Assembly (NCBI GenBank): GCA_003151615.1 | Contig: PLXZ01000001.1 | Span: forward strand, 3,795-67,794 | DNA from: Candidatus Tayloriibacteriota bacterium | GTDB taxonomy: Bacteria > Patescibacteriota > Minisyncoccia > Phycocordibacterales > PALSA-1337 | DNA length: 64,000 nt | Reading direction: 5' to 3' | In this document: one piece after another, positions 1 to 48,364 of the stretch | How the letters are laid out: each line of letters begins with the position of its first letter | How positions within the stretch are numbered: the stretch's first letter is position 1 | Position numbers and translations under genes: made by a program | The notes under the pieces: generated by a model | The model's database searches: none | What the model was told of the DNA's origin: nothing | Seen by the model: the letters and a program-made list of their open reading frames with translations, nothing else

Positions 1-1416
1 TTGACCGTAATTATCGCTTATTACCGCAGGAACAGAACTAACCGGCCCAAAATAAATCACCGACTGCGAATTTGCAAAGCCTTGAGATCCGTCGGCATTG
101 TTATAGAAGGTTCCGCCGGCATTATTCTTGTAGACATTTACACCCTGACTTCCCCCGTTTACCGTGACATTGAAAGTACCCGTAAGCAGAGACTCCTGCC
201 GTTTCGAATTATATGACAATTGCAGAGTCGGATAGTTGGCGACGGAAGCCGAAGCAGGCACGTTCGTAACGGGCGTTGAAGTTGCAATCGGAGCAGTTAT
301 CCAATTCGAATTGCCACAAGGGCCAATCGAGGATGTTCTCCATGCTGTATTATTTGCCATCGAATTCGAAAGCGCCGTCACTTTGCCGGCGGCGGTGGAC
401 CATGCAATACCCGTCAATTGAACGGCGCAGACATCCGCATTCGTTCCTGCGCTCAGGAATTGATATGTCACCGGAATGGTTACACTCTGATTCTGGGCGA
501 TAGTAAATGATGCGCCGTCACTCGAGAGCGTCGTATTCGACGGCTGTGAATAGCCTGCGACAAGATTAGGGCCGGAGATCACGGGTGCGCCGTCTCGATA
601 CACCTGAGCGAGATTCGTAGGCGTCGCTGAATTGCCGAAAGCAGGAGAAGTCGAATTAGGCAATCCAAGTGTTACATTCTGACCGATAGCCTGAACATTA
701 ACGTTGAAAGTAGCCCTATTTAGAATGACGCTGCTCGTAGCATTACCGAGAGGAGTTATATTTGTCGTCGTAATAGTCGGTGTTCCGGCAAGCGAAAACG
801 CGGGACCCGGGCCGGCGACGGTAATGGCATTTCCGTTTGCGGAACCGGTAAGCGCCGTAACTGCATTGTCTCTCGAATCGTATACGGCGAGATACCCTGC
901 CGCATTCGACATTGAAGCGGTTACAACCTCTTGCGAACCTGGCGTTGTCAGACCTGAGACGTCAACCTTAACCGTGAAAGGAACCGTCGTATTGATAGGA
1001 ATAGTTGCGCCTGCCGCATTGTCGCTGATCCGGAATGTAGCGACATTATTGACTACCGCGGACGACGCAATAGGCGTAGAGCCCTGATAGAGGTACGCGG
1101 CATTCACTGTTCCATTACCTGAAGGAAATATACTTACAAGAACATTGTGAAGATGAAGAGTGTCGCCCTGTGCATTAACGTCAAACACCAAAACTGGTAG
1201 ACCGAGATACTGGCCCTGTGCCGTGTTTGTTACCGGCACCGTATCTGAAAGAGGGCTTGATCCGTCGAGTGACAAAGTTGCTGAAGATGCCGAAACCGGA
1301 GTTATCGGAGTACATACCCAACCTGCCGGACAAACGACTGTCTGTGCGGAAGCCACAATCGGCGAAAATTGAAAGACGGCAAGTACGGAAAATGCTGAAA
1401 TAAGAAATCGTTTCAT
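1..1416 (-). CDS. Secreted cell-surface protein, partial (C-terminus beyond the window start). It is a paralog of the 9177-11135 gene. N-terminal signal peptide MKRFLISAFSVLAVFQFSPIVASA.
   Basis: I checked by hand that the reading frame is open across 1-1416 on the minus strand, with ATG at 1414-1416. It is absent from the ORF track because no stop lies in the window. It shares blocks with the 671-aa protein: QGQYLGLPV(L/M)VFDVNA(Q/N)GDTLHLH, AAYLYQGSTPI, PINTTVPFTVKVDVSGLT, and the C-terminal WST...AWRT motif. Confidence 0.75.
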   Translation of the reverse strand, partial: MKRFLISAFSVLAVFQFSPIVASAQTVVCPAGWVCTPITPVSASSATLSLDGSSPLSDTVPVTNTAQGQYLGLPVLVFDVNAQGDTLHLHNVLVSIFPSGNGTVNAAYLYQGSTPIASSAVVNNVATFRISDNAAGATIPINTTVPFTVKVDVSGLTTPGSQEVVTASMSNAAGYLAVYDSRDNAVTALTGSANGNAITVAGPGPAFSLAGTPTITTTNITPLGNATSSVILNRATFNVNVQAIGQNVTLGLPNSTSPAFGNSATPTNLAQVYRDGAPVISGPNLVAGYSQPSNTTLSSDGASFTIAQNQSVTIPVTYQFLSAGTNADVCAVQLTGIAWSTAAGKVTALSNSMANNTAWRTSSIGPCGNSNWITAPIATSTPVTNVPASASVANYPTLQLSYNSKRQESLLTGTFNVTVNGGSQGVNVYKNNAGGTFYNNADGSQGFANSQSVIYFGPVSSVPAVISDNYGQ

Positions 1417-3631: not shown

Positions 3632-6562
3632 TTATTGCGCCGTATCGACATCGTCGATAAACGCCTCGAATATATCCTCGAGTTTTTGTTTGCGGGTTGA
3701 ATCCAGATTTTTGAACACCCAATGCTGGTTCTGCAAATCGGCAATAGCCTTCTGCGCCCCGGCAATCGCCTGTTTGTTTGGATTCTTCACCTCTTTAATC
3801 GGCTTTTTCTTTCTCAAGCAATCAATGATGGAATCAAGTTTGTCATGCATCATTTTTTCCTTGTACGGAGAGAGACCGAGCGAAGAAACAATTGACTGAT
3901 ATGATTCCATGTCGAGAACCGGATCATATTCGTCGTGCGGGGTCGAGGTTGCGTCTGTCGTTCCGTCGCCATTGAAATCAAACAGCATCATTTGCGTTGT
4001 TGATGCCGTCGTCGAAGTCGCGGAAAACCGCGTCGTTGTCGCCAAAACAAGTTCGGCTTTCAAAAGCGGCGTCACCGGCATATCCGCGAACATCGTATTG
4101 GTCGCATCGACGCCGTTGACGTCATGCTCCGTATCAACTTCGAACGAACCCATTCCCGTTCCGGTAAATGTCACGCGATAATCCGTTCCGTACGGAACTC
4201 TGACATAGGTATCTTCGTCATTAGGAACGTAATCACTGCCCGGAATGCCCGTTTCAAACATCCCAAGATCCGATCCGGGAATGGGATTCGGTATTGGACC
4301 GGTATGATTACCCCTACTGTCGTAGACATTTAATTCGACGGGAGAATGGATCGAGATAACGAGAGCATCCTCGTGCACATCCGCCATGGTAGGAGCCCTG
4401 TTAGAAATATATGGCGGTAATGTTTCATCTTGGTCTCCCGGCGTAGAATTAGTCGATGACGCAACTAACTTTTCCTTCACGAATGCGACTCCTGAATCCG
4501 TGCTCAAGATATCAGCATGATCATCGCCAATGATTTTGCCTTTGCTTTCCGAGCCAAGATCGAAATAATAGTCGGACGAACTGGAAATCGCGGCCGCGGC
4601 GCTCTGCAATATCACGGTTCCGTCGCCAAAGATTGTCGTGGATGCCGAATGCTCAAGGGCATTTGTGCATGTCGGGGTTGTGCCAAAAAATACCGTCATG
4701 GCGCTGTCAGAGCAAACTTTTTTTGCATAGTAGGATATTCCGGAGAGCGTTGGATTGCCCCATCCCGCGAGAATGATTGCCTTGGTCGTCGAAGCGAACG
4801 AAAAAGTATCGATCGTATCGTGGATTTTTTGCGCAGCATCAATCATTGCGGTATGAAGAATTGCCGGCAAATCCGTATCGCCGGCGGACGGTTCGGCGCG
4901 GTGATCCGAAATACCCGTCAAAAAACTGCGCAAGGCGTCATAACCGGAAACCGTCTGTTTTTCGCCTGCCAAATTGAAGTCGGCAATCGCAGACGACGTA
5001 AACGAAACGATCGAACCGAACAGACTGCTCGTGGCGTTTGAAAAATATCCGCGCGACGGCAGCAATCCGTATCCGCCCGGCATATTGTCGCCAAGTTCCC
5101 GCGCAATGCCCTGCGTTGTTATTGCTCCTCCCAGAATGCTCTGATTATCGCCGTGAAGAAGTCCGGCAATCGCTTGCGGCGTGCCCAGTTGTGGCACTGC
5201 CACCAGAATCACTTTATCAAGCAAACCTGATTCGCCTTTGTCGGCGAGAGCTTTCGCCAAGACTTTTGCAACCAAGCCGCCATTGCTATGCGCGACAATG
5301 GTAACTTTTCCTGTTTTTGAAGTGGATGCGAGCGATTGAATTGTCTGAATCAATTTTTGCGAAACCGCTGCAGTGACGTCAAAGCGCCAGTCATAAGGAT
5401 ACGCCGTCCACGAATTGATAGTCTTGTCCGCAACCACGCCATTCATCATGGCGATAAAACCTTTATAAATCGGAAACAAGCCGAGAGCGCTGTCGATAAT
5501 ATCCTTCGTATATATTCCTGAATTGACGCTCTGCCCCGTCGGCGTCATGAAAAGCTTTTGCACGTCGGCGTTTCTGTTGGGTTCCCACAATTCATTCGTC
5601 GACGTTCCAAAGAGCGATTTTTGGTCAAGATAAAGCCTACTTGATTCGATACCGGGCAAGAACAAGACATTTGAACAGCATGCGGCCGATTGCGCGTGAA
5701 TTACCGTATCCTGCGTAAGCCATGGCGCATAATCGACGTTACCGAAAATCGCGGCGCCGGTCGCGCTCGCGGGCCCTGCCGAACTTCCCCACCAATTGTT
5801 TTCGGCACTGATCGGATTATCAATTGAATTATAAATGCCGTATAAACTATTGTTCGTGATTGAACTGCTTGAAATGACAATATTGTTCACAGCCGGAGGC
5901 GTCGGAATTGTCAGGGCATGCGCTATCTCCGGCGCAAAAAGTGCCCTAAAAAATCGGGACGCGAAACCTGCGCGGGGCGTGCCGAAAGTATTTTCAAAAG
6001 TGTTTCCAGGGGTGTTTACCGCCTGAAACACCGGCGGCGGCATGGGACGTGAATATATGCCGTACCTGTTTCCGGAAATGACACTGTCGGTGATAGTGAT
6101 TGAACTTCCCTGCGCGTCAACAGCCGTGTCAGCATCGGTTATGGTGGTCGAGGAAATCCAGACATTGCTTTGGGTAATGCCCAATCCCGTCGGCACGTCA
6201 ATATGCGCATTCGAAAATGTCGACGTCGCAAACGAAATCCAAAAACCCGTCAAATTATTCAGGATTACCGGCTGGCTCGCCGTTCCGTTTACGGATAAGG
6301 TTCCACCGACGGAAAGCGAACCGGGACTGGACGAAGACGTCGTGACAGTTACGCCCGGCCCAATCGAAAGAAAAACTCCGAACGGAATATAAATATCAGC
6401 GTCGAGAATATAGGGACTGCCCGTCTTGGTCCAACTCACAGTTTGGCCAAATGCCGTGTCGGCCGTGATATGCGTCTCGGCATGGACGACCGGGGCGATA
6501 AAAATAAACGTCGCAAAAACAACAGAAACAAAAACGCGAAAAAGATTCTTCATATGATGCAA
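3632..6562 (-). CDS. Secreted multidomain protein. It has a signal peptide, parallel beta-helix-like repeats (NNWWG), an LCAT/PGAP1-like alpha/beta-hydrolase lipase domain (PYDWR, GxSxG = AHSNGG), and a C-terminal DFNGDG-containing region.
   Basis: 976-aa ORF. N-terminus MHHMKNLFRVFVSVVFATFIFIAPVVHA. Motifs YPYDWRFDV and TIVAHSNGGLVAKVL match the LCAT-like phospholipase/acyltransferase family. NRYGIYS and NNSLYGIYNS...NNWWG are beta-helix-like. Confidence 0.7.
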   Translation of the reverse strand: MHHMKNLFRVFVSVVFATFIFIAPVVHAETHITADTAFGQTVSWTKTGSPYILDADIYIPFGVFLSIGPGVTVTTSSSSPGSLSVGGTLSVNGTASQPVILNNLTGFWISFATSTFSNAHIDVPTGLGITQSNVWISSTTITDADTAVDAQGSSITITDSVISGNRYGIYSRPMPPPVFQAVNTPGNTFENTFGTPRAGFASRFFRALFAPEIAHALTIPTPPAVNNIVISSSSITNNSLYGIYNSIDNPISAENNWWGSSAGPASATGAAIFGNVDYAPWLTQDTVIHAQSAACCSNVLFLPGIESSRLYLDQKSLFGTSTNELWEPNRNADVQKLFMTPTGQSVNSGIYTKDIIDSALGLFPIYKGFIAMMNGVVADKTINSWTAYPYDWRFDVTAAVSQKLIQTIQSLASTSKTGKVTIVAHSNGGLVAKVLAKALADKGESGLLDKVILVAVPQLGTPQAIAGLLHGDNQSILGGAITTQGIARELGDNMPGGYGLLPSRGYFSNATSSLFGSIVSFTSSAIADFNLAGEKQTVSGYDALRSFLTGISDHRAEPSAGDTDLPAILHTAMIDAAQKIHDTIDTFSFASTTKAIILAGWGNPTLSGISYYAKKVCSDSAMTVFFGTTPTCTNALEHSASTTIFGDGTVILQSAAAAISSSSDYYFDLGSESKGKIIGDDHADILSTDSGVAFVKEKLVASSTNSTPGDQDETLPPYISNRAPTMADVHEDALVISIHSPVELNVYDSRGNHTGPIPNPIPGSDLGMFETGIPGSDYVPNDEDTYVRVPYGTDYRVTFTGTGMGSFEVDTEHDVNGVDATNTMFADMPVTPLLKAELVLATTTRFSATSTTASTTQMMLFDFNGDGTTDATSTPHDEYDPVLDMESYQSIVSSLGLSPYKEKMMHDKLDSIIDCLRKKKPIKEVKNPNKQAIAGAQKAIADLQNQHWVFKNLDSTRKQKLEDIFEAFIDDVDTAQ

Positions 6563-6670
6563 AAATTAAATTACTAATAATTGCACCTACGATATCAGAG
6601 TGCGATAAAATCCTGATAAAATTATCGCGATAAATTATTTCCGAGATTTTGTAAAGAGAAACGAGAAAAA

Positions 6671-7114
6671 CTACTGTATCGTAAAAGCCTGAGTTCCGAC
6701 CAAAACATGATTATTAGCCGAATTAACGAAATAGATTTGATAATTGGTTTTTGGGAATGTATTCGAAGGCACTTTGAAAGTAAAGCTCTGCTGGGTCGAT
6801 GTTGCCGTCCCGAGAACCTGTCCGATGTAAAAGCCCTTGTTTGTGACAAATTCCAAATCGAGAATGTACTTTATGGCATTCGGGTTTTTATTCTTCCACG
6901 TAAGGGTATACATCTGACCGGCGTGCAAAACAGTGGAACCGATGGCGGAGGTAATGACCGGCGGAAGCCGCAGATCGTCGGAAATAAAGGTCGACGACGC
7001 CGAAATGGATGACGAAGCAACGGCCGAAATATTCGCGGGAGTATGAATCGCAGGCGAATAGACCCCGAATAGTGTTCCGAGATAAATCAATATTGTTGCA
7101 AAAAGTGATTTCAT
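6671..7114 (-). CDS. Small secreted hypothetical protein with a signal peptide.
   Basis: 147-aa ORF with N-terminus MKSLFATILIYLGTLFGVYS. Confidence 0.5.
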   Translation of the reverse strand: MKSLFATILIYLGTLFGVYSPAIHTPANISAVASSSISASSTFISDDLRLPPVITSAIGSTVLHAGQMYTLTWKNKNPNAIKYILDLEFVTNKGFYIGQVLGTATSTQQSFTFKVPSNTFPKTNYQIYFVNSANNHVLVGTQAFTIQ

Positions 7115-33164: not shown

Positions 33165-33312
33165 AATACATATCAAGAGTACAGGGAGGGACCTAGCCCG
33201 ATGAACTGTCAGCAACCCTTGCGAAAGCGAGAAGGTGCTACCACTAGCCCGGCAACGGGAATGATAGTTTCATCTCCACAAACTCGCATTCCCGCCGGAA
33301 GCGGGTTTTGTT
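33165..33312 (+). promoter_or_regulatory. SAM-I (S-box) riboswitch with an intrinsic-terminator expression platform, upstream of sat-cysH.
   Basis: ATCAAGAG-TACAG-GGAGGGAC-CTAGCCCGATGAA-CTGTC-AGCAACC...GGTGCTACCACTAGCC matches the S-box core (ATCAAGAGAGGTGGAGGGACTGGCCCGATGAAACCCGGCAACC...GGTGCTAATTCC). It is followed by the hairpin cccgc-cggaa-gcggg plus TTTTGTTGTT at 33281-33312. Confidence 0.75.
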
Positions 33313-37433: not shown

Positions 37434-38669
37434 TTAGCCCCGCAAAATCGAATCTATTTTTTTGGCCAGTTTGACGAAGTCTTTTTCAAGTTTCCCGCGC
37501 GTCGTTTCTGCGGCGGAACCGAGGCGAATACCGGATGGGTCGGTCGGAGGGCGCTTGTCAAAAGGAATTGCATTTTTATTGACGATGATGCCGGCTTTTT
37601 CCAATTTATCACTCGCCTCCTTGCCTGAAACCGCGCCGGCTCCCTTCGCATTTTTCTGACCGTTCATCCATGTGTCAACGAGAACCAAATGCGAATCCGT
37701 TCCGCCGGAAATGATTTTCCACCCGCGTTTCGTCAATTCGCCGGCAAGAGCCGTAGCATTTTTCTTGACCTGTTTCGCATATTTTTTGAAAGCCGGAGCG
37801 GCTGCTTCTTTCAAAGCCACCGCGACAGCGGCAATTTGATTGATGTGAGGACCGCCCTGGAGACCAGGAAAAACAGCCTTGTCGATTTTTGATGAAATCG
37901 AAACCGGACCATTGGTGCCATCGACATGCCGGTCGAGCCGGCTGAAAATCATAGCCGCGCGCGGACCGCGCAGTGTTTTGTGGACCGTTGTCGTGACGAT
38001 ATCAGCATATTCAAAAGGCGACGGATATTCCTTCCCCGCAACGAGTCCGGCAAAGTGCGACATATCCACCATCAAAAGCGCGGACTGACCCGTTTCATTT
38101 TTCGCCGCGTCGGCAATGTCGCGGAATTTTTTGAAATCAATGGCGCGCGGATATGCCGTAAATCCGGCGACAATGATGACCGGTTTCTCCCGCATCGCAA
38201 TTTCGCGCAATTCCCCGTAATTGAGCTGCTCCAATTTCGCATCAACACCATATGGAACCTGAACCCAGAATTTTCCGGTAGCGGAAACTTTGTGACCGTG
38301 GGTCAAATGACCTCCATGGTCGAGCGACATGCCCATGATTTTTCCTCCGGGCGGAACGAGTGCTGTGTAAACGGCCAAGTTGGCCGGCGAACCCGACAAA
38401 GGCTGCACATTCACATGCCATTTATCAGCCGACAAACCGAAAGCTTTCAATGCACGCTCAATCGCCAACATCTCGATTTTATCCACCACTTCATTGCCGC
38501 CATAGTAGCGCTTGCCCGCATACCCTTCCGCATATTTATTCGTCAGTTCCGAGCCGAGCGCATCCAAAACATCCTGCGACACATAGTTTTCCGACGCAAT
38601 CAGATTCACGACTTTTTTCTGCCGCTTTTTCTCCGCATCAATCAGTTTTTTAATGGCGGCGTCTTTCAT
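37434..38669 (-). CDS. glyA: Serine hydroxymethyltransferase.
   Basis: IASENYVS...LTNKYAEGY...GGHLTHGHKVS is the SHMT signature. Confidence 0.95.
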   Translation of the reverse strand: MKDAAIKKLIDAEKKRQKKVVNLIASENYVSQDVLDALGSELTNKYAEGYAGKRYYGGNEVVDKIEMLAIERALKAFGLSADKWHVNVQPLSGSPANLAVYTALVPPGGKIMGMSLDHGGHLTHGHKVSATGKFWVQVPYGVDAKLEQLNYGELREIAMREKPVIIVAGFTAYPRAIDFKKFRDIADAAKNETGQSALLMVDMSHFAGLVAGKEYPSPFEYADIVTTTVHKTLRGPRAAMIFSRLDRHVDGTNGPVSISSKIDKAVFPGLQGGPHINQIAAVAVALKEAAAPAFKKYAKQVKKNATALAGELTKRGWKIISGGTDSHLVLVDTWMNGQKNAKGAGAVSGKEASDKLEKAGIIVNKNAIPFDKRPPTDPSGIRLGSAAETTRGKLEKDFVKLAKKIDSILRG

Positions 38670-39633
38670 GTGAATAGCTTATCATATTTTTAATCTTGAA
38701 AGTATTTCCGTGCGTTAACATACCCAAATAAGATGCAACAGTTTCTATCTTAGGCTGATGATCAAGATTCTTAAACATTCTCTTCTTTGTAGCCGTTCTT
38801 AGAACTCTATGGTCAGGAAAATGTATCCACCCAAGGAAATCGACACCTGACGAGAACGTTTTAATGAAAACTTTATCGGGATGAAGTTTCAGGGCCAGTT
38901 TTTCTTCCAAAAATAGTGACATTTTCGGCAATATATCGAGAAGCCAATCCTTGTTCCCGCTCATCACCACAAAATCATCGGCGTATCGGATATAGTATTT
39001 TGCTTTAATCGTGTGCTTCATAAAATGGTCAAAAGCATTCATGTAGACGTTAACCAGAAGCTGCGAGGTGAGATTGCCAAGCGGTAATCCCTTTCCGTCT
39101 ACTGTACTGTGGAAACTTTTAGCCACACGTCCGATAAGCCAAATGACATCAGGATCGGTAATGTACTTTCCTACAGTATCAAGGAGTATTTTTTGATCGA
39201 TTGAAGCAAAAAACTTCCGAATATCGCACTTTAAAATCCAAAGCGTCTTTGTGTTATTCTTGCTCTCCTTTAAAGCAAAATGCTTGAATCGTTCCACTGC
39301 TCGATGTGTACCCCGTAGCTTACGGCATGAGTATGAATCATAAATAAAAGTGCGGTCAAAAAAAGGATAAAGTTCGCGATAGATTGCATGATGCAAAAGT
39401 CTGTCTCGCACACTTGCCTTATGGATATTTCGTGGCTTTGGATCAGAGATATTAAAGGCATAGTAGCCTCCATGGGTATAAGTTTTATTTTTTAAATCAG
39501 TATGTAAATCAAGAATGTTATCGGATAAACGATATTGAAACTCCTGCACATCTTTCTTGCTTCGCTTCCCTTTTAGGAATTCTTTCCACGCTTCGAGCAA
39601 ATTTTCCATAGAAATGATATTGTTGTACATCAT
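38650..39633 (-). CDS. DGR reverse transcriptase.
   Basis: RT motifs PKPRNIHKASVRDR and YADDFVV. Motif 4 is GLPLGNLTSQLLVNVYM; the xGxxxSQ form is diagnostic of DGR RTs, where group II and retron RTs have QGxxxSP. Length is 327 aa. The 3' end overlaps the glyA start by 20 nt. Confidence 0.85.
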   Translation of the reverse strand: MMYNNIISMENLLEAWKEFLKGKRSKKDVQEFQYRLSDNILDLHTDLKNKTYTHGGYYAFNISDPKPRNIHKASVRDRLLHHAIYRELYPFFDRTFIYDSYSCRKLRGTHRAVERFKHFALKESKNNTKTLWILKCDIRKFFASIDQKILLDTVGKYITDPDVIWLIGRVAKSFHSTVDGKGLPLGNLTSQLLVNVYMNAFDHFMKHTIKAKYYIRYADDFVVMSGNKDWLLDILPKMSLFLEEKLALKLHPDKVFIKTFSSGVDFLGWIHFPDHRVLRTATKKRMFKNLDHQPKIETVASYLGMLTHGNTFKIKNMISYSHERRRH

Positions 39634-39696
39634 GATTGATACAAAAATTAAGACTGATAAAGTAGCCCCCCCCCGCAGAGATTAATACCTGTTGTT

Positions 39697-40047
39697 TTGA
39701 AGCTCAAGGACACCTATGCCATATGGCAGGACTATTTAACCCATTTTCCCAAAGCTAACCGTTTTACGATTGGTTCAAAGATAGATATCCTCTTCCTCGA
39801 AGCGATCGAATACGCTTTCATCGCAAGCTATACCCATACGGCCGACAAGCATATATTCTTAAATAAAAGCATCTCTAAAGTGGATCTCATTAAGCTCCTT
39901 CTACAACTTTCGTGGGAGATAAAAGCACTCGATAACAAGAAATATATCGTGCTGTCAGAAAAATTCTCTGAAATCGGTAAGATGCTTGGAGGCTGGAAAA
40001 AGCAATTACTTAGCAAAACTCCTGAGACAAAATCTCAGGAGAAATAA
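39697..40047 (+). CDS. avd: Avd-like accessory variability determinant (four-helix-bundle / 23S rRNA intervening-sequence protein family). TTG start.
   Basis: 116 aa and basic. HFPKANRFTIGSKIDILFLEAIEYAFIASY...EIGKMLGGW resembles the Avd/TIGR02436 pattern (FPKEERYGL.SQLRRAA.S...NIAEG...L.GL). It lies between RT and TR but on the opposite strand. Confidence 0.7.
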   Translation: MKLKDTYAIWQDYLTHFPKANRFTIGSKIDILFLEAIEYAFIASYTHTADKHIFLNKSISKVDLIKLLLQLSWEIKALDNKKYIVLSEKFSEIGKMLGGWKKQLLSKTPETKSQEK

Positions 40048-40055
40048 TGATAGTG

Positions 40056-40181
40056 GCGAACAGCCAGGAAACGATAGTTGGCATTCCAATCACCGTCCCA
40101 GTTGTTGAGGTTGAGGTTCCGCTTGGAATCGTCCTTGTTGAGGTTCGGCACGTTGCGGTTGCCATTGACCTTACCAACGGA
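40056..40181 (-). repeat. DGR template repeat (TR): 126 nt, 33 adenines, AAC/AAT Asn-codon rich.
   Basis: Identical to VR except at TR-adenine positions. In-frame translation gives ...NGNRNVPNLNKDDSKRNLNLNNWDGDWNANYRFLAVR. Confidence 0.88.
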
Positions 40182-40420
40182 CCTTGTGTGAAAAACCACC
40201 CATGGCACTGCTCCCCGATAGCTTCGCGAAAGCTGCATCGAATTCGTGACATTAATCTATCACTTGGTTTCTCACACCAACTGTCTCTCTATTTTTTGAG
40301 ATCAATCCTCGAAATACTCTTTGGAAAACCTTGGTCTTCCAAACTCTCATTCCGAGGGTTGCGGACAAATTACCCAAAGCCGTGACCTTGGATTTATCAC
40401 TTGTCACTTTTCATTATATA

Positions 40421-40466
40421 TGAAAATAAAAAACCTCGCGCGACACAACTTGTGTACAACGCGAGG
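40421..40466 (-). terminator. Nested GC hairpin plus T-tract downstream of the DGR target gene. Terminator and candidate DGR target-recognition stem-loop.
   Basis: cctcgcg-[acacaa-c-ttgtgt]-cgcgagg. On the minus strand it is followed by TTTTTTATTTT. Confidence 0.6.
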
Positions 40467-40529
40467 TCTGAATTTGATGCGACCAAGGGTCCAAGATTCC
40501 AAGTGGCAAAGCGCAAGCGATGCCGATGA

Positions 40530-41288
40530 TCAAGAAACCGAGATCTGAGAGACTTTTTTGCGAACAGCCAGGAAACGATAGCTGGCACCCCAACCACCGT
40601 CCCAGCGGATGAGGTCGAGGTCCCGCCCGGAAACGCCCTCGTAGAGGTAAGGCACGTGGCGGCCGAGGCGGAGGTGCCGCTCGGAAACGTCCTTGTTGAG
40701 GTACGGCACGCAGCGGAAGCCATAGACCTTACCAACGGAGCCCAACGCAACGATCGGATACTTCCGCTGTTCTTCAGGGTTATTTTTCCCGTAAGTCAGC
40801 AGATGCTCGATCGCGGCCGGTTGCCATGGATTGGCAGTATCGTCGGTTGTAATGCCACTGACGGCATTTTCCGACGAGATGGAGCGATCGAAATGGAACA
40901 TTTTAAATTCCCACTCGTCCGCGCCGGTGTTCTTCAATGGAAATCGCTTCGCAGTGATGTCGCTGTTAGTCCAGTCGTAATTGCCGGCCTTGATCATCTC
41001 TTCGAGAGACAAGGTGCAGTCTACGACATAGACCACGATTGCGCCGACGACGGCATTGACAGTGTTCGTCACCCAGCAGGGCTCCTTGCGCAGAAATTTT
41101 TTGAGCATTTCCCACCAGGTGTTTCCGTCCTTGCCGTTCAATTTGGCGAAGAGGTCCTTGAGGACGCCGATTGCGGATTGGGCTTCTTCATTGACAATCT
41201 GGTCGAGTGATTCGAGCAGATTCAGTAACAGTCCGAGCATGATTTTCATGGTCAGTTTCCTTTCATCGCCGACTTTAGAAGTCAGCAT
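40530..41288 (-). CDS. DGR target (variable) protein with a C-terminal VR in a C-type-lectin/FGE-like context (...GFRCVPYL...WDGGWGASYRFLAVR).
   Basis: 252-aa ORF. VR is at 40559-40738. The start may be the internal MKIML at 41249. Confidence 0.8.
   Translation of the reverse strand: MLTSKVGDERKLTMKIMLGLLLNLLESLDQIVNEEAQSAIGVLKDLFAKLNGKDGNTWWEMLKKFLRKEPCWVTNTVNAVVGAIVVYVVDCTLSLEEMIKAGNYDWTNSDITAKRFPLKNTGADEWEFKMFHFDRSISSENAVSGITTDDTANPWQPAAIEHLLTYGKNNPEEQRKYPIVALGSVGKVYGFRCVPYLNKDVSERHLRLGRHVPYLYEGVSGRDLDLIRWDGGWGASYRFLAVRKKVSQISVS
40559..40738 (-). repeat. DGR variable repeat (VR): 180 nt, equal to TR plus a 54-nt internal tandem duplication.
   Basis: About 31 substitutions against TR at TR-A sites, and one elsewhere (ccg to cct). 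Confidence 0.88.
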
Positions 41289-41385: not shown

Positions 41386-41439
41386 AAAGAACTTACAGGT
41401 GTATTGTACACCATTAGTATGGCATCTGTCAATGGTAAG

Positions 41440-41490: not shown

Positions 41491-42063
41491 CTATTTCGCC
41501 TTTCCTGCCTTCACCTCTTCTTTCTTGAACGGAAAACCGAGATGTTCCAAAAATGCGAGTGTCTGAACCTTGTCGTTTGATGAAGTCACGACCGTGAGAG
41601 CCATTCCGAAAACATCGCGGAGATCTTCGTCTGATGTTTCAGCGAAAATGGTGTGCTCGCGGATGCCGAGGGTGTAATTGCCCATTTCGTCGACTGCGGT
41701 TCGCGTTATGCCGCGGAAGTCCTTTGTGCGGGGCAATGAAATGTGGACAAGCCGGTCAAGAAAATCATTCATGCGTTTGCCGCGGAGGGTTATCTGGAAA
41801 CCAACAGGGTCGCCGGTGCGGACCTTGAATGTTGCGATCGATTTCTTCGCGCCGCGAAGAGCAGGCTTTTGGCCCGTGATTTTCGCCAATCGGTCTGCGA
41901 CGAGTTCGATTTTCTTTTTGTCCTTGATCGAGCCGATACCCGCGGAAACGACGACTTTCAAAAGTCGAGGCGACTGCATTGGATTTGTATAGCCGAATTT
42001 CGGCTGAAGCGTTTTGTATGCGCTCTTTTCCAAATCTTTGATTGTTGTGTGTGATGTTTTCAT
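41491..42063 (-). CDS. rplE: 50S ribosomal protein L5.
   Basis: Typical L5 sequence (LLKVVVSAGIG...GAKKSIATFKVRTGDPVG). Confidence 0.93.
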   Translation of the reverse strand: MKTSHTTIKDLEKSAYKTLQPKFGYTNPMQSPRLLKVVVSAGIGSIKDKKKIELVADRLAKITGQKPALRGAKKSIATFKVRTGDPVGFQITLRGKRMNDFLDRLVHISLPRTKDFRGITRTAVDEMGNYTLGIREHTIFAETSDEDLRDVFGMALTVVTSSNDKVQTLAFLEHLGFPFKKEEVKAGKAK

Positions 42064-42064
42064 A

Positions 42065-42283
42065 TTATTTCTTCAGCGCGACGTTTGAAACGTCAATCGG
42101 CATAGCCTGGTCGACAACCTGACCTTTCTGGCCTTCCTTGCGGGGTCGCATATGCTTTTTGACGAGGTTAAGACCTTCGACGATGACTTTGCCGTCGCGA
42201 GGAAAAGACTTCGAGACCTTTCCCGTCTTGCCCTTGTCCTTTCCCGTAAGGATTATTACATTGTCGTTTTTCTTGATGGTCAT
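42065..42283 (-). CDS. rplX: 50S ribosomal protein L24.
   Basis: [20 protein letters not shown], with KOW motif. Confidence 0.93.
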
Positions 42284-42289
42284 AAATTT

Positions 42290-42661
42290 TTATACAATCT
42301 CCGGCGCTTTTGAGGCGATGGTCTGGTAACCGCGTTCCGACAATTCGCGAGGAATCGGGCCGAAGATGCGTCCGGCAATCGGCTCCTTCGTACCCTTTGT
42401 CAAAATGACGACTGAGTTTTCATCGAATCGCACGTATGATCCGTCCTTGCGGCGGAATGGCTTGCGCTGGCGGACGACGACGGCCTGGAGAACATCCTTC
42501 TTTTTGATGGTCTTGCGGGGTTCGGCCTTCTGAACGGAGAGGACCACGAGATCGCCGATTTCAGCATAGCGCTTCTTCGAAGAGCCAAGCACCTTGAAAA
42601 TACGGCCGATTTTGGCGCCGCAGTTGTCAGTTATTCGTACGATTGAGCGTGGCTGTATCAT
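42290..42661 (-). CDS. rplN: 50S ribosomal protein L14.
   Basis: MIQPRSIVRITDNCGAK... Confidence 0.95.
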   Translation of the reverse strand: MIQPRSIVRITDNCGAKIGRIFKVLGSSKKRYAEIGDLVVLSVQKAEPRKTIKKKDVLQAVVVRQRKPFRRKDGSYVRFDENSVVILTKGTKEPIAGRIFGPIPRELSERGYQTIASKAPEIV

Positions 42662-42665
42662 AAAT

Positions 42666-42941
42666 TTATTCTGCTATTTTAAAAGACTTGTGTCGTGAAA
42701 TAGGTCGGCATGATTCGATCGTAACCTTGTCCCCCACCTTTTTGGTGTTTCCGGGATTGTGGACCTTGTAGCGCTTCGAAAGATTCATGAACTTGTGATA
42801 TTTCTCGTTTTTCACATAGCGTTCGACCAAAACAACAACCGTATCCTTCATTTTGTCGGACACGACAACGCCACTCAAAGTTTTTCGCTTTGGAGCTTCC
42901 GCCTGCACGGTCGTTTTTGTTGTCTTTTTAGTGTCAGTCAT
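42666..42941 (-). CDS. rpsQ: 30S ribosomal protein S17.
   Basis: LSGVVVSDKMKDTVVVLVERYVKNEKYHKF... Confidence 0.93.
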   Translation of the reverse strand: MTDTKKTTKTTVQAEAPKRKTLSGVVVSDKMKDTVVVLVERYVKNEKYHKFMNLSKRYKVHNPGNTKKVGDKVTIESCRPISRHKSFKIAE

Positions 42942-42982
42942 TGGTGTTGATTTATATCACGTATCCTCTATCTATTCAAGTT

Positions 42983-43420
42983 TTACGCTCCCATTACCGC
43001 TCGGTTGATAATTTTCGTCTTGACGGAAATTTTCGTGCCGGCCTTTCGCAATGCTTCCAACGCCGTTTTGTCGTCCACGCCGTCGATTTCAAAAAGAATT
43101 CGGCCGGCCTTTACCGGAGCAACGAATCCGACCGGATCTCCCTTACCCTTTCCGAGCTTTACTTCGGCTGGTTTCTGGGTGAATGGTCGGTCCGGAAAGA
43201 CGCGAACCCATACTTTTCCGGACTTTGTGGCATATCGAGCCATGACTTTTCGCGCAGCTTCGATTTCATTCGACGACAAACGTCCGTACGCGAGAGCCTT
43301 CAATCCGAATGATCCGAACGAGAGGTGCGTACCACGCGTTTCAACAGCCACCGCGAGTTTCTTCGCGTTCTTGCGGCCGGTATGCCATTTTCGGAATTTT
43401 ACTTTTTTAGGGAATAACAT
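42983..43420 (-). CDS. rplP: 50S ribosomal protein L16.
   Basis: MLFPKKVKFRKWHTGR...FGSFGLKA... Confidence 0.95.
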   Translation of the reverse strand: MLFPKKVKFRKWHTGRKNAKKLAVAVETRGTHLSFGSFGLKALAYGRLSSNEIEAARKVMARYATKSGKVWVRVFPDRPFTQKPAEVKLGKGKGDPVGFVAPVKAGRILFEIDGVDDKTALEALRKAGTKISVKTKIINRAVMGA

Positions 43421-43440
43421 GGTAGTGATTTATATGAAAA

Positions 43441-44163
43441 TTATTTGAATTTTTGCGTCGGAGCGGCACCTGTTTGCGTCGTTTTCGCGAGATTCGCAGC
43501 CATGTCCTTCGCGAAAATCTCTCCTTTATATATCCAGACCTTTATACCGATGTCGCCGTAGGTCATGTGGGCCTTTTCGCGTGCGAATTCGATGTCTGCA
43601 CGCATTGTTTGAAGAGGAATACGACCCTTTTTGAGGTCTTCCTGACGTGCCATTTCAGCACCACCGAGTCGTCCCGACAATTTGATGCGGGCACCCTGGA
43701 CTTCGCGGTTTGCCATGACTTTCTCCAATGCCTGCTTCACAACGCGGCGGAATGGAAGGCGCTTTTCGAGACCTTCAGCGACCATCAAACCGACGATAGC
43801 CGAGTTTGCTTCAGGATTTCGGACTTCCTCGATGTCCATCTTCAATTCTTGGCCTGAGAGGTCAACTCCTCGCTTTTTGAGCTGCTTCATGACTTTCTCG
43901 CGGAGCTTTACGATACCGTCACCCGCGCGGCCGATGATCATACCCGGTCGTGATGAACGGATAATGATGCGGAGGGCCTTCTGATTTCGCTCGATTGCAA
44001 TGTCGGAAAGATAGAATGCGCGCAATTCCTTCGTCAAAAACTCACGGATAACAATGTCAGCCTTCAAATAGTTGCGGTATTGCTTGTCCACGCCGAACCA
44101 GCGGCTCTTCCAGTCGCGAATGATTCCAAGTCTATGTGCATATGGGTGTACGGAGTGTGACAT
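43441..44163 (-). CDS. rpsC: 30S ribosomal protein S3.
   Basis: KH domain and S3 C-terminal blocks (GIIRDWKSRWFG...). Confidence 0.95.
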   Translation of the reverse strand: MSHSVHPYAHRLGIIRDWKSRWFGVDKQYRNYLKADIVIREFLTKELRAFYLSDIAIERNQKALRIIIRSSRPGMIIGRAGDGIVKLREKVMKQLKKRGVDLSGQELKMDIEEVRNPEANSAIVGLMVAEGLEKRLPFRRVVKQALEKVMANREVQGARIKLSGRLGGAEMARQEDLKKGRIPLQTMRADIEFAREKAHMTYGDIGIKVWIYKGEIFAKDMAANLAKTTQTGAAPTQKFK

Positions 44164-44164
44164 G

Positions 44165-44566
44165 TTATTTTTTTTGTGTTTTTTCTGTTTTTACAATCGC
44201 CGGTCGTCCCCATCGTCGGAGCTTCGCGGGCTTTTCAGCAATCGGAGCGAGAGTGATCATGACGTTGCTTGAACGCTTGTTGATTCGTGAAGCACTGCCG
44301 CGTGCTCGTGGCATCGATCGCTTCAACGTAACTCCCCCGTCAACGCGGATTTCCTTTATAAAAAGACCGGCTGATTCGATATTAAAATTGTTTTTTGCGT
44401 TGGCGATTGCCGATGCGAGGAGCGCGCCGAGAGGACCGGTTGCCTTCTTCGGAAGGAATTTAAGCATGCTCGCCGCCTCGACGACTGATTTGCCGCGCAT
44501 GAGGTTAGCCGTGCCGCGGACCTTGCGGGGAGACTGTCGATAGTTGTGGAGTGATGCTGTGATCAT
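44165..44566 (-). CDS. rplV: 50S ribosomal protein L22, with a C-terminal basic extension.
   Basis: SPRKVRGTANLMRGKSVVEAASMLKF...KRSMPRARGSASRINKRSSNVMITL. Confidence 0.9.
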   Translation of the reverse strand: MITASLHNYRQSPRKVRGTANLMRGKSVVEAASMLKFLPKKATGPLGALLASAIANAKNNFNIESAGLFIKEIRVDGGVTLKRSMPRARGSASRINKRSSNVMITLAPIAEKPAKLRRWGRPAIVKTEKTQKK

Positions 44567-44579
44567 ATATATATATAAA

Positions 44580-44948
44580 TTATTTGGCGCCAGGCTTAGC
44601 TGTCGCACCCGGTGCGGATCCGGCCGCTTCCTTCGCTGATTTTGCGGCATTGATTTCAGCTTCCTTCTGCTTCATTTCCAATTCCTTCTGCATCTTTCCT
44701 CCGTGTCGGTTGAATTTGCGCGTAGGCGAAAATTCACCGAGGCGGTGTCCAACCATGTCCTCGGTGATCAAAACTTCCAAATGTTGTCGTCCGTTATACA
44801 CGCCGAATGTGAACCCAATCATTTCCGGCGCAATCTGGGATCGGCGATACCATGTTTTAATAACCCCTGTTTCCAGAGGTTTTTTGCCTGAAATCTTTTT
44901 GAGGAGTCGTTCTTCAACGAACGGACCCTTATACAGTGAACGTGACAT
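44580..44948 (-). CDS. rpsS: 30S ribosomal protein S19, with a C-terminal Lys/Ala-rich extension.
   Basis: [18 protein letters not shown]...[18 protein letters not shown]. Confidence 0.93.
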
Positions 44949-45111
44949 TTTATATTAAAGCCTATTTTCCTTTAGTATCCTGTGTTTATAAATGCCCGTG
45001 GAATCGGCAGAAGACCGGCTCGCACTCAGACAAAATCCAAACACTGGTTAAAAAGGAACTCGTTAGAGCTTGGTTATCCATACTAGCAGACCTGTGTTTA
45101 AAGTCAACATT

Positions 45112-46717: not shown

Positions 46718-48364
46718 TTATTTATAGAGATACAGGTATTTATTACCGAGAACTGATATTTGTGGATTATTCCTTAACAAATGGGCCAGATCGGTTATCG
46801 AAGTAAAGTTGATGTTTGTTCCGTGATGCGGCTCTATGTGCACGTCACCATTATACTCCATATTATCCGCAAAGGCTTTTTCAAAGATATTCAGCTTTCC
46901 GTCAAGGGCAAATATGGCCGACTGGGCCGTCGAACAGGCAACGTGAGGATTCAAATTTCCATGGAAAAGCCAACCTTTCGGAAGATACTCGGGATTGAAG
47001 TAACCATGCCAATGGGCAATGCCGAAACCTTTTTCCTTTGCCTGCTTGGCATAGCCAGAAGCAGGTTTTACATGTTCCAAAATTGAGGCGGAGATGGCAT
47101 TCCCCACCGCATGCGCCAAAATCACCTTCGTGTCGAATGACGGACGGTAATCTTTCGTCAATTTCATTCCTCGCGGCATTTGCAAATACATTTTTCCATC
47201 AACGAGACCGAGCTTTAATATATCAGTTTCAGGATGAACGTTCGTCTTGTCGGACCCGGATTTCTGGCTCAACACCCATATAGGAGGAACTTTCATGCAG
47301 AATTTTTTGCCGTTCAATTCAATGACAATAAAGAGTTTTCCGCCGGACCAAAAATAATCTTTTCCGGAAGAAATTTCAGGATATTGTTTCATGGCTGATT
47401 CGATTGGCACAAGTTTTTCAATTTCAACCGGCATTTGTTTCGCGAGAAATCCGTAACTCATGCCGCTTCTGTTATCCAAATGAATTTTGCCAATCCATCT
47501 GTAAAATCCGTTACGGAAAGGCATATCGGCAATTTTCTTGCCTTTCGGATACAAACCGGTGGCATCAAAAGCTTTCGCGCCAATCACGATGTCGGCGATC
47601 TGCGACTGATAGTCCTTCGCGGTAACGTCAAAATGCTCGTCGAGGACCACAAATTCGGTAAATTTATGCGGACGTATCGGTGCAACAATTTTTGGCACAA
47701 GGGCATCAAGAACATGTTCTTTGAAATCTTCATCAATTGAATACACGGGATGCGAAGCGTTGAAGTTATACAGAATCCATTCCTTTTTACTGACCAAAAT
47801 GACAATCTGGGTCATATGATACGAGAAAAGATCCATCGCCGTGTCAAAATGCTTTTGAAACTCGCTTTTTTCATCGATATCCTTTGGCTGGTCCAAAATG
47901 GTTATGATGGAATTCTGCGTAAAGCTCGAAGTGTAATCAATCGGCAATTTCCAGGTCTTGTTTTTTCCGAGGGCAATTACGGATATTCCCCTCTTGATGC
48001 GCCACCTTTTCAAAAGATTCCTCAACGCCGAAAAATTAATGAAATAATACGGATGTTCTTTTCTAAAAAGCTCATAGACTGCAAACAGAAAATTATTGGC
48101 AATGATATTAAAAAAACGTTTTGCAATTTTGCGGAAAGGAACTTTTTCCAAAGTATCGGCATATGGGACGACAGATACGCCGAGTTCATGAAATGTCTTC
48201 GTCAATTTTTCCGCGAAAACCTGAATTTCCGGACTTATATTCGCTGTATCATAGGGAAAAAAAGAGACTTTCATCATGGTCGCCATTTCACGGGGTGAAA
48301 GACATGTCTTTTCCTTTATACCGAGTATTTCCTGAATGGCGTCTTGACTGAGCATATGTGCCAT
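46718..48364 (-). CDS. Hypothetical 548-aa protein, directly upstream of and co-oriented with the HK (1-nt gap).
   Basis: Long ORF with no motif I could assign. Confidence 0.5.
   Translation of the reverse strand: MAHMLSQDAIQEILGIKEKTCLSPREMATMMKVSFFPYDTANISPEIQVFAEKLTKTFHELGVSVVPYADTLEKVPFRKIAKRFFNIIANNFLFAVYELFRKEHPYYFINFSALRNLLKRWRIKRGISVIALGKNKTWKLPIDYTSSFTQNSIITILDQPKDIDEKSEFQKHFDTAMDLFSYHMTQIVILVSKKEWILYNFNASHPVYSIDEDFKEHVLDALVPKIVAPIRPHKFTEFVVLDEHFDVTAKDYQSQIADIVIGAKAFDATGLYPKGKKIADMPFRNGFYRWIGKIHLDNRSGMSYGFLAKQMPVEIEKLVPIESAMKQYPEISSGKDYFWSGGKLFIVIELNGKKFCMKVPPIWVLSQKSGSDKTNVHPETDILKLGLVDGKMYLQMPRGMKLTKDYRPSFDTKVILAHAVGNAISASILEHVKPASGYAKQAKEKGFGIAHWHGYFNPEYLPKGWLFHGNLNPHVACSTAQSAIFALDGKLNIFEKAFADNMEYNGDVHIEPHHGTNINFTSITDLAHLLRNNPQISVLGNKYLYLYK

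Follow-up and report, generated by a model that had tools for sequence, protein, structure and literature searches.

Evidence for a chromosomal diversity-generating retroelement with a duplicated variable repeat and a folded RNA ahead of its template in a Patescibacteria genome

Results

The window analysed here, a stretch of 64,000 nucleotides, holds at positions 38650-41288 a complete, intact diversity-generating retroelement (DGR) cassette, as an earlier note on this DNA had proposed: reverse transcriptase (RT), avd, template repeat (TR) and a target gene carrying the variable repeat (VR) were all found, and every ORF is full length (Table 1). In the ORF map the target gene lies upstream, followed by the TR, a reversed avd and the RT, which is the gene order of architecture B3. 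RT, TR and target share one strand, while avd is on the other and diverges from the RT over a 63-nt spacer; this inversion, like the duplication in the VR described below, had been overlooked. The same layout recurs in two relatives (L001 and L002), and the inverted position of avd is seen in L002.

The cassette sits between glyA and rplE, as had been noted, in a position that is less odd than was claimed, the ribosomal cluster being cut at both ends here (only rpsS to rplE are present, with a histidine kinase upstream). The proposal that the element was acquired is plausible rather than proven. The low GC content of RT and avd and the differing gene neighbourhoods of relatives' DGR loci favour it, but a recent insertion is disfavoured because the RT stop overlaps the start of glyA by 20 nt. 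The description of the cassette as AT-rich holds for RT and avd (38-41% GC) but not for the target gene (52-56% GC); the flanks are at ~49%.

Table 1. Features of the cassette and its surroundings, in window coordinates.
Feature	Position	Strand	Remarks
DGR reverse transcriptase, 327 aa	38650..39633	-	Pfam RVT_1 E 5.5e-24; LGNLTSQ (motif 4), YADD
Promoter-like site before avd	39636-39663	+	promoter scan
avd accessory gene, 116 aa	39697..40047	+	TTG start; Pfam bAvd 46.1 bits, cut-off 40
Stem-loop, 9-10 bp, 14 nt 3' of TR	40019..40041	-	followed by UUUUG; terminator-like scan match
Post-TR linker (CACTATCATTATTT)	40042..40055	-	proposed pairing with leader 40279-40291
Template repeat (TR), 126 nt = 42 codons	40056..40181	-	33 adenines, 9 AAC codons
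Structured leader of TR RNA, ~225 nt	40182..40407	-	conserved; alignments A4, A5 with RNAalifold
Leader helices P4, P5	40246-40263; 40210-40233	-	
Leader helix P3	40266-40277 paired with 40186-40197	-	
Leader segment X	40279-40291	-	proposed partner of post-TR linker
Leader helices P1, P2	40372-40393; 40313-40351	-	
TATAAT box	40413..40418	-	likely -10 element of TR RNA promoter; putative function
Terminator-like hairpin of target gene	40427..40467	-	ACCTCGCG...CGCGAGGT then TTTTTT; read directly from sequence
Target (variable protein) gene, ORF 252 aa	40530..41288	-	helical N-terminal part; predicted C-terminal C-type-lectin/FGE-like domain
Variable repeat (VR), 180 nt = 60 codons	40560..40739	-	= TR[1..78] + TR[25..126]
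VR copy 2 of 54-nt unit	40608..40661	-	11 adenine substitutions + sole non-adenine change (CCG>CCT)
VR copy 1 of 54-nt unit (TR 25-78)	40662..40715	-	10 adenine substitutions
Promoter-like site of target gene	41403..41432	-	TTGACA-18-TACAAT, 11/12 matches; consensus match only

Both motifs that had been read as diagnostic of a DGR enzyme are present in the RT. In a comparison with the PDB its best solved relative is 8ub7_A (E 5.1e-40), which we take to be the bRT of Bordetella phage BPP-1; the alignment covers 286 residues (4-289) including the fingers and palm motifs and sets LGNLTSQ and YADD against IGSLTSQ and YMDD. The next matches are retron-type and group II RTs, at E 8e-21 or weaker. 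The predicted avd product, also named in the earlier note, passes the Pfam threshold for bAvd and is matched by NCBIfam DivGenRetAVD at E 1.9e-15, with 57 bits under a cut-off of 80.

The TR is where it had been placed, on the minus strand, and is rich in AAC and AAT codons, of which it has 9 and 2. For the VR the length of 180 nt was right and the coordinates (40559-40738) were off by one base. Each end of the TR has one exact partner within the window, and the VR ends nine codons ahead of the target ORF stop. Alignment and tabulation bore out the expected pattern of differences: 30 of the 31 mismatches fall at TR adenines (A>G 16, A>T 10, A>C 4) and the remaining one is G>T, so substitutions are far from even over the four template bases (binomial P ~8e-16, adenine making up 28% of the template). 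With the duplicated unit counted twice, 30 of 51 adenine sites are changed. Contrary to what had been stated, TR and VR are not collinear; at 126 and 180 nt they can be fitted only in the two-part arrangement of Table 1. About 7% of accepted DGRs also differ in TR/VR length (PMC5758913), so equal length is usual rather than strictly defining. The flanks of the two repeats are identical over 15 and 22 nt, and the sequences run the same through ...CTATCGTTTCCTGGCTGTTCGC and diverge after it, the sequences at the IMH and IMH* positions being identical. Directly 3' of the VR there is no convincing GC-rich inverted repeat, a feature that only 34% of DGRs have, and the nearest hairpin is the terminator ~90 nt away, which the scanner did not call because its loop is long.

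No domain is recognisable in the target by sequence. Its AlphaFold model (pLDDT 85) has a C-type-lectin (CLec)/FGE fold with the VR at the C-terminus, that is, at the 3' end of the gene, in agreement with the ligand-binding family that had been suggested. Homologues favour a start at M14 (41249), giving a protein of 239 aa. Variation in the family follows the template: residue entropy across 93 homologues reaches 2.54 bits where the codon of this TR has A in positions 1-2, against 0.61 bits elsewhere (Mann-Whitney p 4e-7), and the closest homologues share 80-89% identity outside the VR against 50-67% inside. The exact target protein was found on three contigs, which may not be independent of one another.

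The extra length of the VR is an in-frame tandem duplication of 54 nt (18 codons) that corresponds to TR positions 25-78, and the copies meet at a CAAC microhomology; the best duplication model has its junction at j = 74-78 and 1 non-adenine mismatch. Copy 1 and copy 2 differ at 12 sites, 11 of which are TR adenines. Seven adenines are altered in both copies, 3 of them to the same base, where ~2.3 would be expected if the copies were independent. The AlphaFold model gives no confident structure for residues 189-202, where the two copies meet. The insert is unique among 105 family proteins, 103 of which have a VR region of 40-44 residues (exactly 42 in 93), and the related distinct TR/VR pairs seen in full are all collinear but for one 1-nt deletion. 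Other length variants in the family are P0112 (+27 nt) and L006 (-1 nt).

The leader ahead of the TR is conserved in structure. In the alignments 90.4% of cells are paired, as against 42-46% in slid controls, both sides change in 46 of 60 pairs, and 46 of 47 pairs form in the window. A covariance model matches at 40182-40342 with 113.8 bits and finds one match per DGR locus, 34 in 545 kb. A scan against Rfam 15 returned no family at E up to 1, and the literature searched yielded no account of the folded 225-nt leader, a silence that is not proof of novelty. One contiguous leader strand pairs with sequences just 3' of the TR (through X) and just 5' of it (P3), and an invariant UUGGU lies at the X/P3 junction, around 40278. 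In the linker:X pairing (helices 5 and 6) 72-79% of cells are paired, 8 of 13 pairs form in the window and four pairs switch AU/GC type, a covariation that may reflect few independent events because the variation is mostly between two subfamilies. The stem-loop beyond the linker is contained in the final codons of avd, which is read from the opposite strand, and is kept by compensatory changes in relatives (helix 11: 3 of 4 pairs change both sides); it may act as terminator for the TR RNA, correspond to the stem-loop that Avd binds in BPP-1, or do both. A TATAA/TATAC box occurs at the same alignment columns in relatives. The putative ends of the TR transcript are drawn solely from such consensus motifs.

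Discussion

The locus is very probably a DGR in the chromosome of a member of the Patescibacteria (CPR), arranged as target - TR - (reversed avd) - RT. It is an element of a known kind: 90% of CPR DGRs have architecture B3, TR-(avd)-RT (Wu et al. 2018, PMC5758913), clade 2 of CPR DGRs has been described (Roux et al. 2021, PMC8144416), and TR/VR length differences near AAC runs are likewise published. It shares with the CPR B3 elements of both surveys the gene order, the inverted avd, a target whose domain is not recognisable by sequence and, by the names of its homologues (Paceibacterota, Kaiserbacteria, Taylorbacteria), the host group. One non-A-to-N difference and a TR/VR length difference near AAC codons have also been reported for DGRs (PMC5758913). 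What is unusual here is the 18-codon extra copy in the VR that is absent from the template, and the conserved folded RNA ahead of that template. Compared with the described B3 elements, the duplication is a clean 54-nt tandem unit, the two copies of which have been mutagenised independently.

By analogy with the Bordetella phage element, the cassette would work by mutagenic retrohoming. A discrete RNA of ~390 nt, made from its own promoter, would run from the 225-nt folded leader through the 126-nt TR to a short linker with the stem-loop; the RT, presumably bound by Avd, would make cDNA on the TR with misincorporation opposite adenines; and the cDNA would replace the VR at the 3' end of the target gene, rewriting the ligand-binding face of a protein of predicted C-type-lectin fold.

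With the BPP-1 DGR (mtd-avd-TR-brt) the element has in common Avd, mutagenesis at adenines, a CLec fold that carries the VR at its C-terminus, a ~9-bp stem-loop close to the 3' end of the TR, and helices pairing both TR flanks. Unlike in BPP-1, avd is inverted between TR and RT, which rules out a simple sense transcript joining TR and RT with avd. The leader strand pairing with both TR flanks is in a long 5' leader here but in the 3' Sp spacer in BPP-1, no convincing GC-rich cruciform is seen by the VR, and the element resides on a cellular chromosome whereas that of BPP-1 is in a phage. The RT-10 RNA motif, which is the BPP-1 Sp region (Weinberg et al. 2017, PMC5737381), is likewise a structured RNA attached to the TR and a presumed organiser of priming, but the RNA described here is 5' of the TR and has no Rfam match. 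The target shows no detectable sequence similarity to Treponema denticola TvpA or other FGE-type CLec variable proteins, and its N-terminal helical part differs; the Treponema element uses HRDC and does not have the layout seen here.

The retroelement itself is the most likely source of the duplication in the VR, an origin that would explain the independent adenine substitutions in the two copies. The RT may have jumped back 54 nt on its template at the CAAC microhomology, new cDNA may have been joined to the old VR in a shifted register at its 5' end, or a duplication at the DNA level may have been followed by partial re-homing. In-frame TR/VR indels near AAC have been put down to RT slippage (PMC5758913), and in 5' cDNA integration short homology suffices and cryptic sites are usable (PMC3240598). 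The present pair of repeats would fit equally well if the template had changed instead, an ancestral TR of two units having served to diversify a VR of two units before slippage left that TR with one; a TR holding identical 54-nt repeats would indeed be unstable. We consider this history unlikely: all 25 related TRs aligned are single-unit, among them that of the closest TR relative, L006, the VR region of the family keeps to the lengths given above, and two rare events in the TR would be needed with a homing event in between. More improbable still is an artefact in which the assembler placed a pair of VR variants from a mixed population one behind the other. The DNA does come from a MEGAHIT-style metagenome contig (k141_1990104), and hypervariable regions are easily misassembled, but the reading frame is kept, the junction falls on a 4-nt microhomology, and the conserved runs between adenine sites are at most 12 nt, so that the copies presumably offer no shared exact stretch for a de Bruijn graph cycle at k of at least 21; the protein's presence on three possibly non-independent contigs and the other length variants in the family also speak against it.

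Because the VR exceeds the TR in length, a further complete round of homing would erase the extra copy, and the fact that this copy has lasted could mean that homing is rare or has stopped. That the element is a recently silenced relic, its parts intact and its target no longer diversified, is an improbable reading to which the lasting length mismatch, the single non-adenine difference, the identical protein on three contigs, one leader position off consensus and an X:linker pairing weaker in the window than in relatives lend something. Against it stand full-length ORFs, an RT with its catalytic motifs, 46 of 47 leader pairs formed, a 180-nt VR with just 1 non-adenine change and the identical TR/VR flanks. 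We reject an identity of the RT as a group II intron, retron or defence enzyme beside an ordinary repeat. NCBIfam does rank group_II_RT_mat first, and no DGR RT family is among its matches, but this top score is far under the cut-off (136.7 bits against 300), as is that of retron_St85_RT (53 against 235). Among solved relatives bRT leads by 19 orders of magnitude, the xGxxxSQ motif is present, an Avd gene adjoins the RT, the TR/VR mismatches are adenine-specific, and an Rfam scan of the window region gave no intron RNA or retron family; the chance that the reading holds is negligible.

Since one leader strand pairs both TR flanks, which is the job of Sp in BPP-1, we propose that the priming/stop segment lies 5' of the template. 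The RNA of CPR B3-type DGRs might then be permuted, with the segment for priming and cDNA stop in the ~225-nt leader of a separate ~390-nt transcript; we put this forward tentatively, as a possibility that is rather less than probable. In such an RNA the invariant UUGGU may mark the junction of the two TR-flanking helices, and the 54-nt duplication may be a natural fossil of out-of-register homing or of a template jump.

As a DGR, the element is one more example of a well-populated class, and CPR genomes are rich in exactly this layout. Its duplicated VR is a clear natural record that retrohoming can alter the length of a variable loop by a whole 18-residue unit, each copy then being separately diversified, and it bears on the joining of cDNA at the 5' side of the VR, a step that is unsettled even for the Bordetella phage element. 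The leader RNA, with its strong covariation support, suggests that the scaffold of CPR DGRs is organised unlike the only one solved structurally. If the tentative reading above holds, with the duplication as such a fossil, DGRs would vary the length of proteins as well as their sequence.

Results

Composition of the cassette

The diversity-generating retroelement (DGR) of the window is genuine and apparently intact, as the earlier note had proposed with one point of observation that needs correction, and it adds a member to the known B3 class of CPR (Patescibacteria) DGRs and does not represent a system of a new kind. The ORF map and the sequence show a non-coding stretch separating the target and RT ORFs on the minus strand. 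Each end of the template repeat (TR) and variable repeat (VR) has exactly two exact occurrences in the 64-kb window, so a single TR and a single VR are present here.

Features of the DGR and its surroundings (window coordinates)
Feature	Position	Strand	Remarks
RT ORF	38650-39633	-	327 aa (ORF map)
avd ORF	39697-40047	+	116 aa; between target and RT ORFs (ORF map)
TR	40056-40181	-	126 nt (repeat finding and pairwise alignment)
VR	40560-40739	-	180 nt; end 9 codons short of the stop of the 252-aa ORF
Target ORF	40530-41288	-	252 aa (ORF map)
Leader	40182-40407	-	~225 nt, 5' of TR
Covariance model match	40182-40342	-	113.8 bits
Promoter-like box	40413-40418		TATAAT/TATAC, directly upstream of leader
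P3, leader side	40266-40277		pairs with 40186-40197
P3, TR side	40186-40197		directly 5' of TR
X	40279-40291		just 5' of P3
Linker	40042-40055		directly 3' of TR
CTTGG repeats	40483-40503	-	three, CTTGGAATCTTGGACCCTTGG; between target stop codon and terminator
Antisense ORF	40047-40385	+	112 aa; antisense to TR and leader
RT/glyA overlap	38650-38669	-	20 nt
Ribosomal cluster	41491-45100	-	fragment, rpsS to rplE only
Further ORF	46718-48364	-	548 aa, beside histidine kinase; no Pfam match
SAM (S-box) riboswitch	33167-33269	+	upstream of ATP-sulfurylase and PAPS-reductase pair

Adenine-specific differences and a duplicated VR segment

The two repeats had been described as collinear, which they are not, because VR is 54 nt longer than TR. 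We tested every model in which VR consists of TR positions 1 to j followed by positions j-53 to 126, and the best of them has its junction at j = 74-78, with several equivalent choices because CAAC lies at both TR 21-24 and TR 75-78. It leaves 31 mismatches, of which 30 hit TR adenines and the last is a G>T change; for a modelled template with 28% adenine, this bias has a binomial probability of ~8e-16. Of the adenine changes, 16 are to G, 10 to T and 4 to C. The earlier count of about 31 differences, all but one at adenines, thus stands, tabulation by TR base reveals no even spread over the four bases, and the TR said to be full of AAC/AAT codons has nine AAC codons. The cassette had also been called AT-rich, which holds for RT and avd (38-41% GC) but not for the target gene, whose 52-56% lies above the ~49% of the flanks.

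Compared with the TR unit, copy 1 of the duplicated segment carries 10 adenine changes and copy 2 carries 11 together with the sole non-adenine change. Between the two copies there are 12 differing sites, and all but one of these are TR adenines. Seven adenines are changed in both copies, three of them to the same new base, a share near the one-third that independent changes would give. The resulting 18-residue insert is found in the window target alone among 105 aligned family members, 93 of which have exactly 42 residues in the VR region.

An adenine-tolerant diagonal scan of ~100 related loci found a VR with a TR 450-600 nt downstream in 34 (27 distinct); gapped local alignment with an RFLAVR-like anchor and an identity-window scan were dropped after running into flanks or missing known pairs. 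In each of these 34 loci TR and VR align along one diagonal of 128-147 nt, except in the window, with two diagonals 54 nt apart, and in related locus L006 (target homologue P0017, ~3976-4125), where a 1-nt VR deletion at a TR AAC shifts the frame of the target C-terminus. The L006 TR is the most similar to the window TR among the relatives. The target homologue P0112 (L102 5001-5687) has a 27-nt (9-aa) tandem VR duplication, RLDSKRDLH followed by RLDSKRDLG, with nearly identical copies and no RT or TR within 5 kb.

RT, Avd and target proteins

The RT matches Pfam RVT_1, and its best relative among all solved structures is 8ub7 (E 5.1e-40, residues 4-289), presumably the DGR RT of the Bordetella phage (bRT). 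The two motifs from which a DGR RT had been recognised both align with it, LGNLTSQ with IGSLTSQ and YADD with YMDD, and we rejected assignment to group II intron or retron-type RTs, which follow at E 8e-21 or weaker. No DGR RT family was among the NCBIfam matches of the RT, and the RT families listed were all far under cut-off. The presumed Avd-like gene was borne out by Pfam bAvd (46.1 bits against a cut-off of 40) and NCBIfam DivGenRetAVD (E 1.9e-15); a PDB sequence search with this protein found no match. Comparison of the target model with known structures ranked the Bd2740 C-terminal domain highest (8.2), followed by an FGE paralogue (7.0), PorK (6.7), PvdO (6.6), CD72 and other CTLDs (6-6.6) and the Treponema DGR target TvpA (5.8). 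The sole low-confidence stretch of the model, residues 189-202, spans the point where the two VR copies meet; copy 1 occupies residues 179-196 and copy 2 residues 197-214 in the 239-aa form of the target.

Target family and layout in relatives

The window sequence is part of a 562,931-bp ENA metagenome contig, and its target protein has 320 homologues, the named ones from Patescibacteria groups. Two related loci, L001 and L002, keep the order target, TR, reverse-strand ORF and RT among different neighbouring genes, and the reverse-strand ORF of L002 is a called bAvd gene. This TR-(avd)-RT layout was defined as architecture B3 by Wu et al. 2018 and makes up 90% of their CPR set (PMC5758913), and Roux et al. 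2021 found that CPR DGRs form their own clade, with targets lacking recognisable domains (PMC8144416). In L001 the same DGR occurs in a multi-target form, with a single TR that matches the VRs of two tandem target paralogues (5423-5700 and 6466-6743). Some target homologues have no RT nearby. The close homologue P0015, between priA and aroA in L004, L005 and L035, has neither RT nor avd nor TR within 6 kb, making it an orphan or else a remote target.

A conserved structured leader RNA

The ~350 nt between the target terminator and TR are strongly conserved in relatives. The leader within them, in the window as in L001, L002, L006, L010-L022 and L032-L092, is a conserved, strongly covarying structured RNA. 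Rfam gave no match to the leader region at E up to 1 across 39600-40600, and at gathering level found two tRNAs and the SAM riboswitch and nothing else. A single-sequence fold of the TR region was not informative (z = -1.4). RNAalifold on 28 sequences predicted 42 pairs, 33 with compensatory double changes, and recovered the same helices from a 25-sequence alignment that included TR and its 3' flank; pairs within TR were dropped, as they showed no compensatory change. Counted over 60 pairs on the 25-sequence alignment, the named structure has 90.4% of cells paired (slid controls, 42-46%), 46 pairs with both sides changed (16-26) and a covariation score of 0.60 (0.11-0.18), and none of 500 column shuffles reached the observed values. 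The window sequence itself forms 46 of the 47 leader and stem-loop pairs.

A covariance model built on 154 positions of the 3' part of the leader gave 34 matches in 545 kb (both strands), one per DGR locus and always on the target's strand, seven of them from outside the training set. The box directly upstream of the leader is conserved, and 14 nt past TR a stem-loop of 9-10 bp is followed by U-rich sequence, its pairing kept despite many stem changes in relatives; we infer a discrete RNA of ~390 nt, with predicted ends near 40406 and 40012. A coding leader was rejected on indels that are not multiples of three and on the covarying helices. The antisense ORF, a gene call on the public contig (L103 10904-11242), overlaps the covarying RNA and TR and is very likely spurious. 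The CTTGG repeats show almost no variation across six related loci and may serve homing as an element of the target site.

Helices at the TR flanks join the leader to both sides of the template. P3 has both sides changed in 10 of its 12 pairs. X can pair with the linker, with 72-79% of cells paired and four pairs switching between AU and GC; this variation lies mostly between two subfamilies and may stem from a small number of events. Of the 13 X:linker pairs, just 8 form in the window. UUGGU at the X/P3 junction is invariant in all sequences. Inspection by eye for alternative pairings of the leader with the TR 3' end, and for a cruciform beside VR, found none conserved across subfamilies.

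Genomic position

On the minus strand, the genes run histidine kinase, rpsS, rplV, rpsC, rplP, rpsQ, rplN, rplX, rplE, terminator, DGR (target, TR RNA, (avd), RT), glyA and argS. The position between glyA and rplE had been thought odd; the placement is right, but the ribosomal cluster is truncated at either end, so that no otherwise intact supercluster is interrupted by the DGR. No rpmC (L29) ORF is present in the 41 nt separating rplP from rpsQ. Ribosomal protein genes occur within five of the CPR DGR cassettes of Wu et al. (PMC5758913). As for the suggestion that the system was acquired, past mobility would be in keeping with the low GC of RT and avd and with the range of gene neighbourhoods among relatives, but the overlap of the RT stop with the glyA start speaks against insertion in the very recent past. 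The same overlap points to co-transcription of glyA with RT.

Discussion

Three routes could have produced the VR duplication, and the retroelement takes part in each: the RT may use the CAAC microhomology to jump back along the template, new cDNA may join the old VR out of register on its 5' side, or a duplication at the DNA level may be followed by partial re-homing. Such routes are plausible because TR/VR length differences occur in ~7% of DGRs, mostly beside AAC, and are put down to RT slippage (PMC5758913), and because 5' cDNA integration in the Bordetella phage BPP-1, for which at least 8 bp of identity is enough, can use cryptic sites and may be a template switch (PMC3240598). Loss from TR of one unit of a former two-unit template is the less parsimonious alternative, given that the TR has a single unit in every one of the 25 relatives aligned. 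We consider an assembly artefact unlikely, as the copies appear to share no exact run long enough for a graph cycle and their junction, at ~40655-40668, is in frame. The 54-nt independently mutagenised duplication illustrates a known phenomenon with unusual clarity.

The leader RNA may be new. In BPP-1, one strand of the spacer downstream of TR base-pairs with the 3' end of TR, carries the priming adenosine and, two bases farther along, forms the stop duplex with a segment upstream of TR; an Avd-binding stem-loop of ~9 bp lies just 3' of TR (bioRxiv 10.1101/2023.10.23.563531). The pairing topology at the TR flanks of the window DGR is the same, whereas its bridging strand lies 5' of the template and not in a downstream spacer; this suggests, as a hypothesis, a permuted arrangement in which the primer would lie near 40278-40280, within the UUGGU. 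Such an arrangement would fit the B3 layout, in which an inverted avd stands in place of the spacer. The boldest reading, which combines a permuted DGR RNA with length diversification by retrohoming, is possible but less likely than not.

Evidence that the adenine pattern drives variation comes at the level of the family. When codons of the 93 homologues with a 42-residue VR were classed by the window TR, residue entropy was 2.54 bits at codons with A in TR position 1 or 2 and 0.61 bits at the remaining codons (p 4e-7), and the closest homologues are 80-89% identical outside VR and 50-67% inside it.
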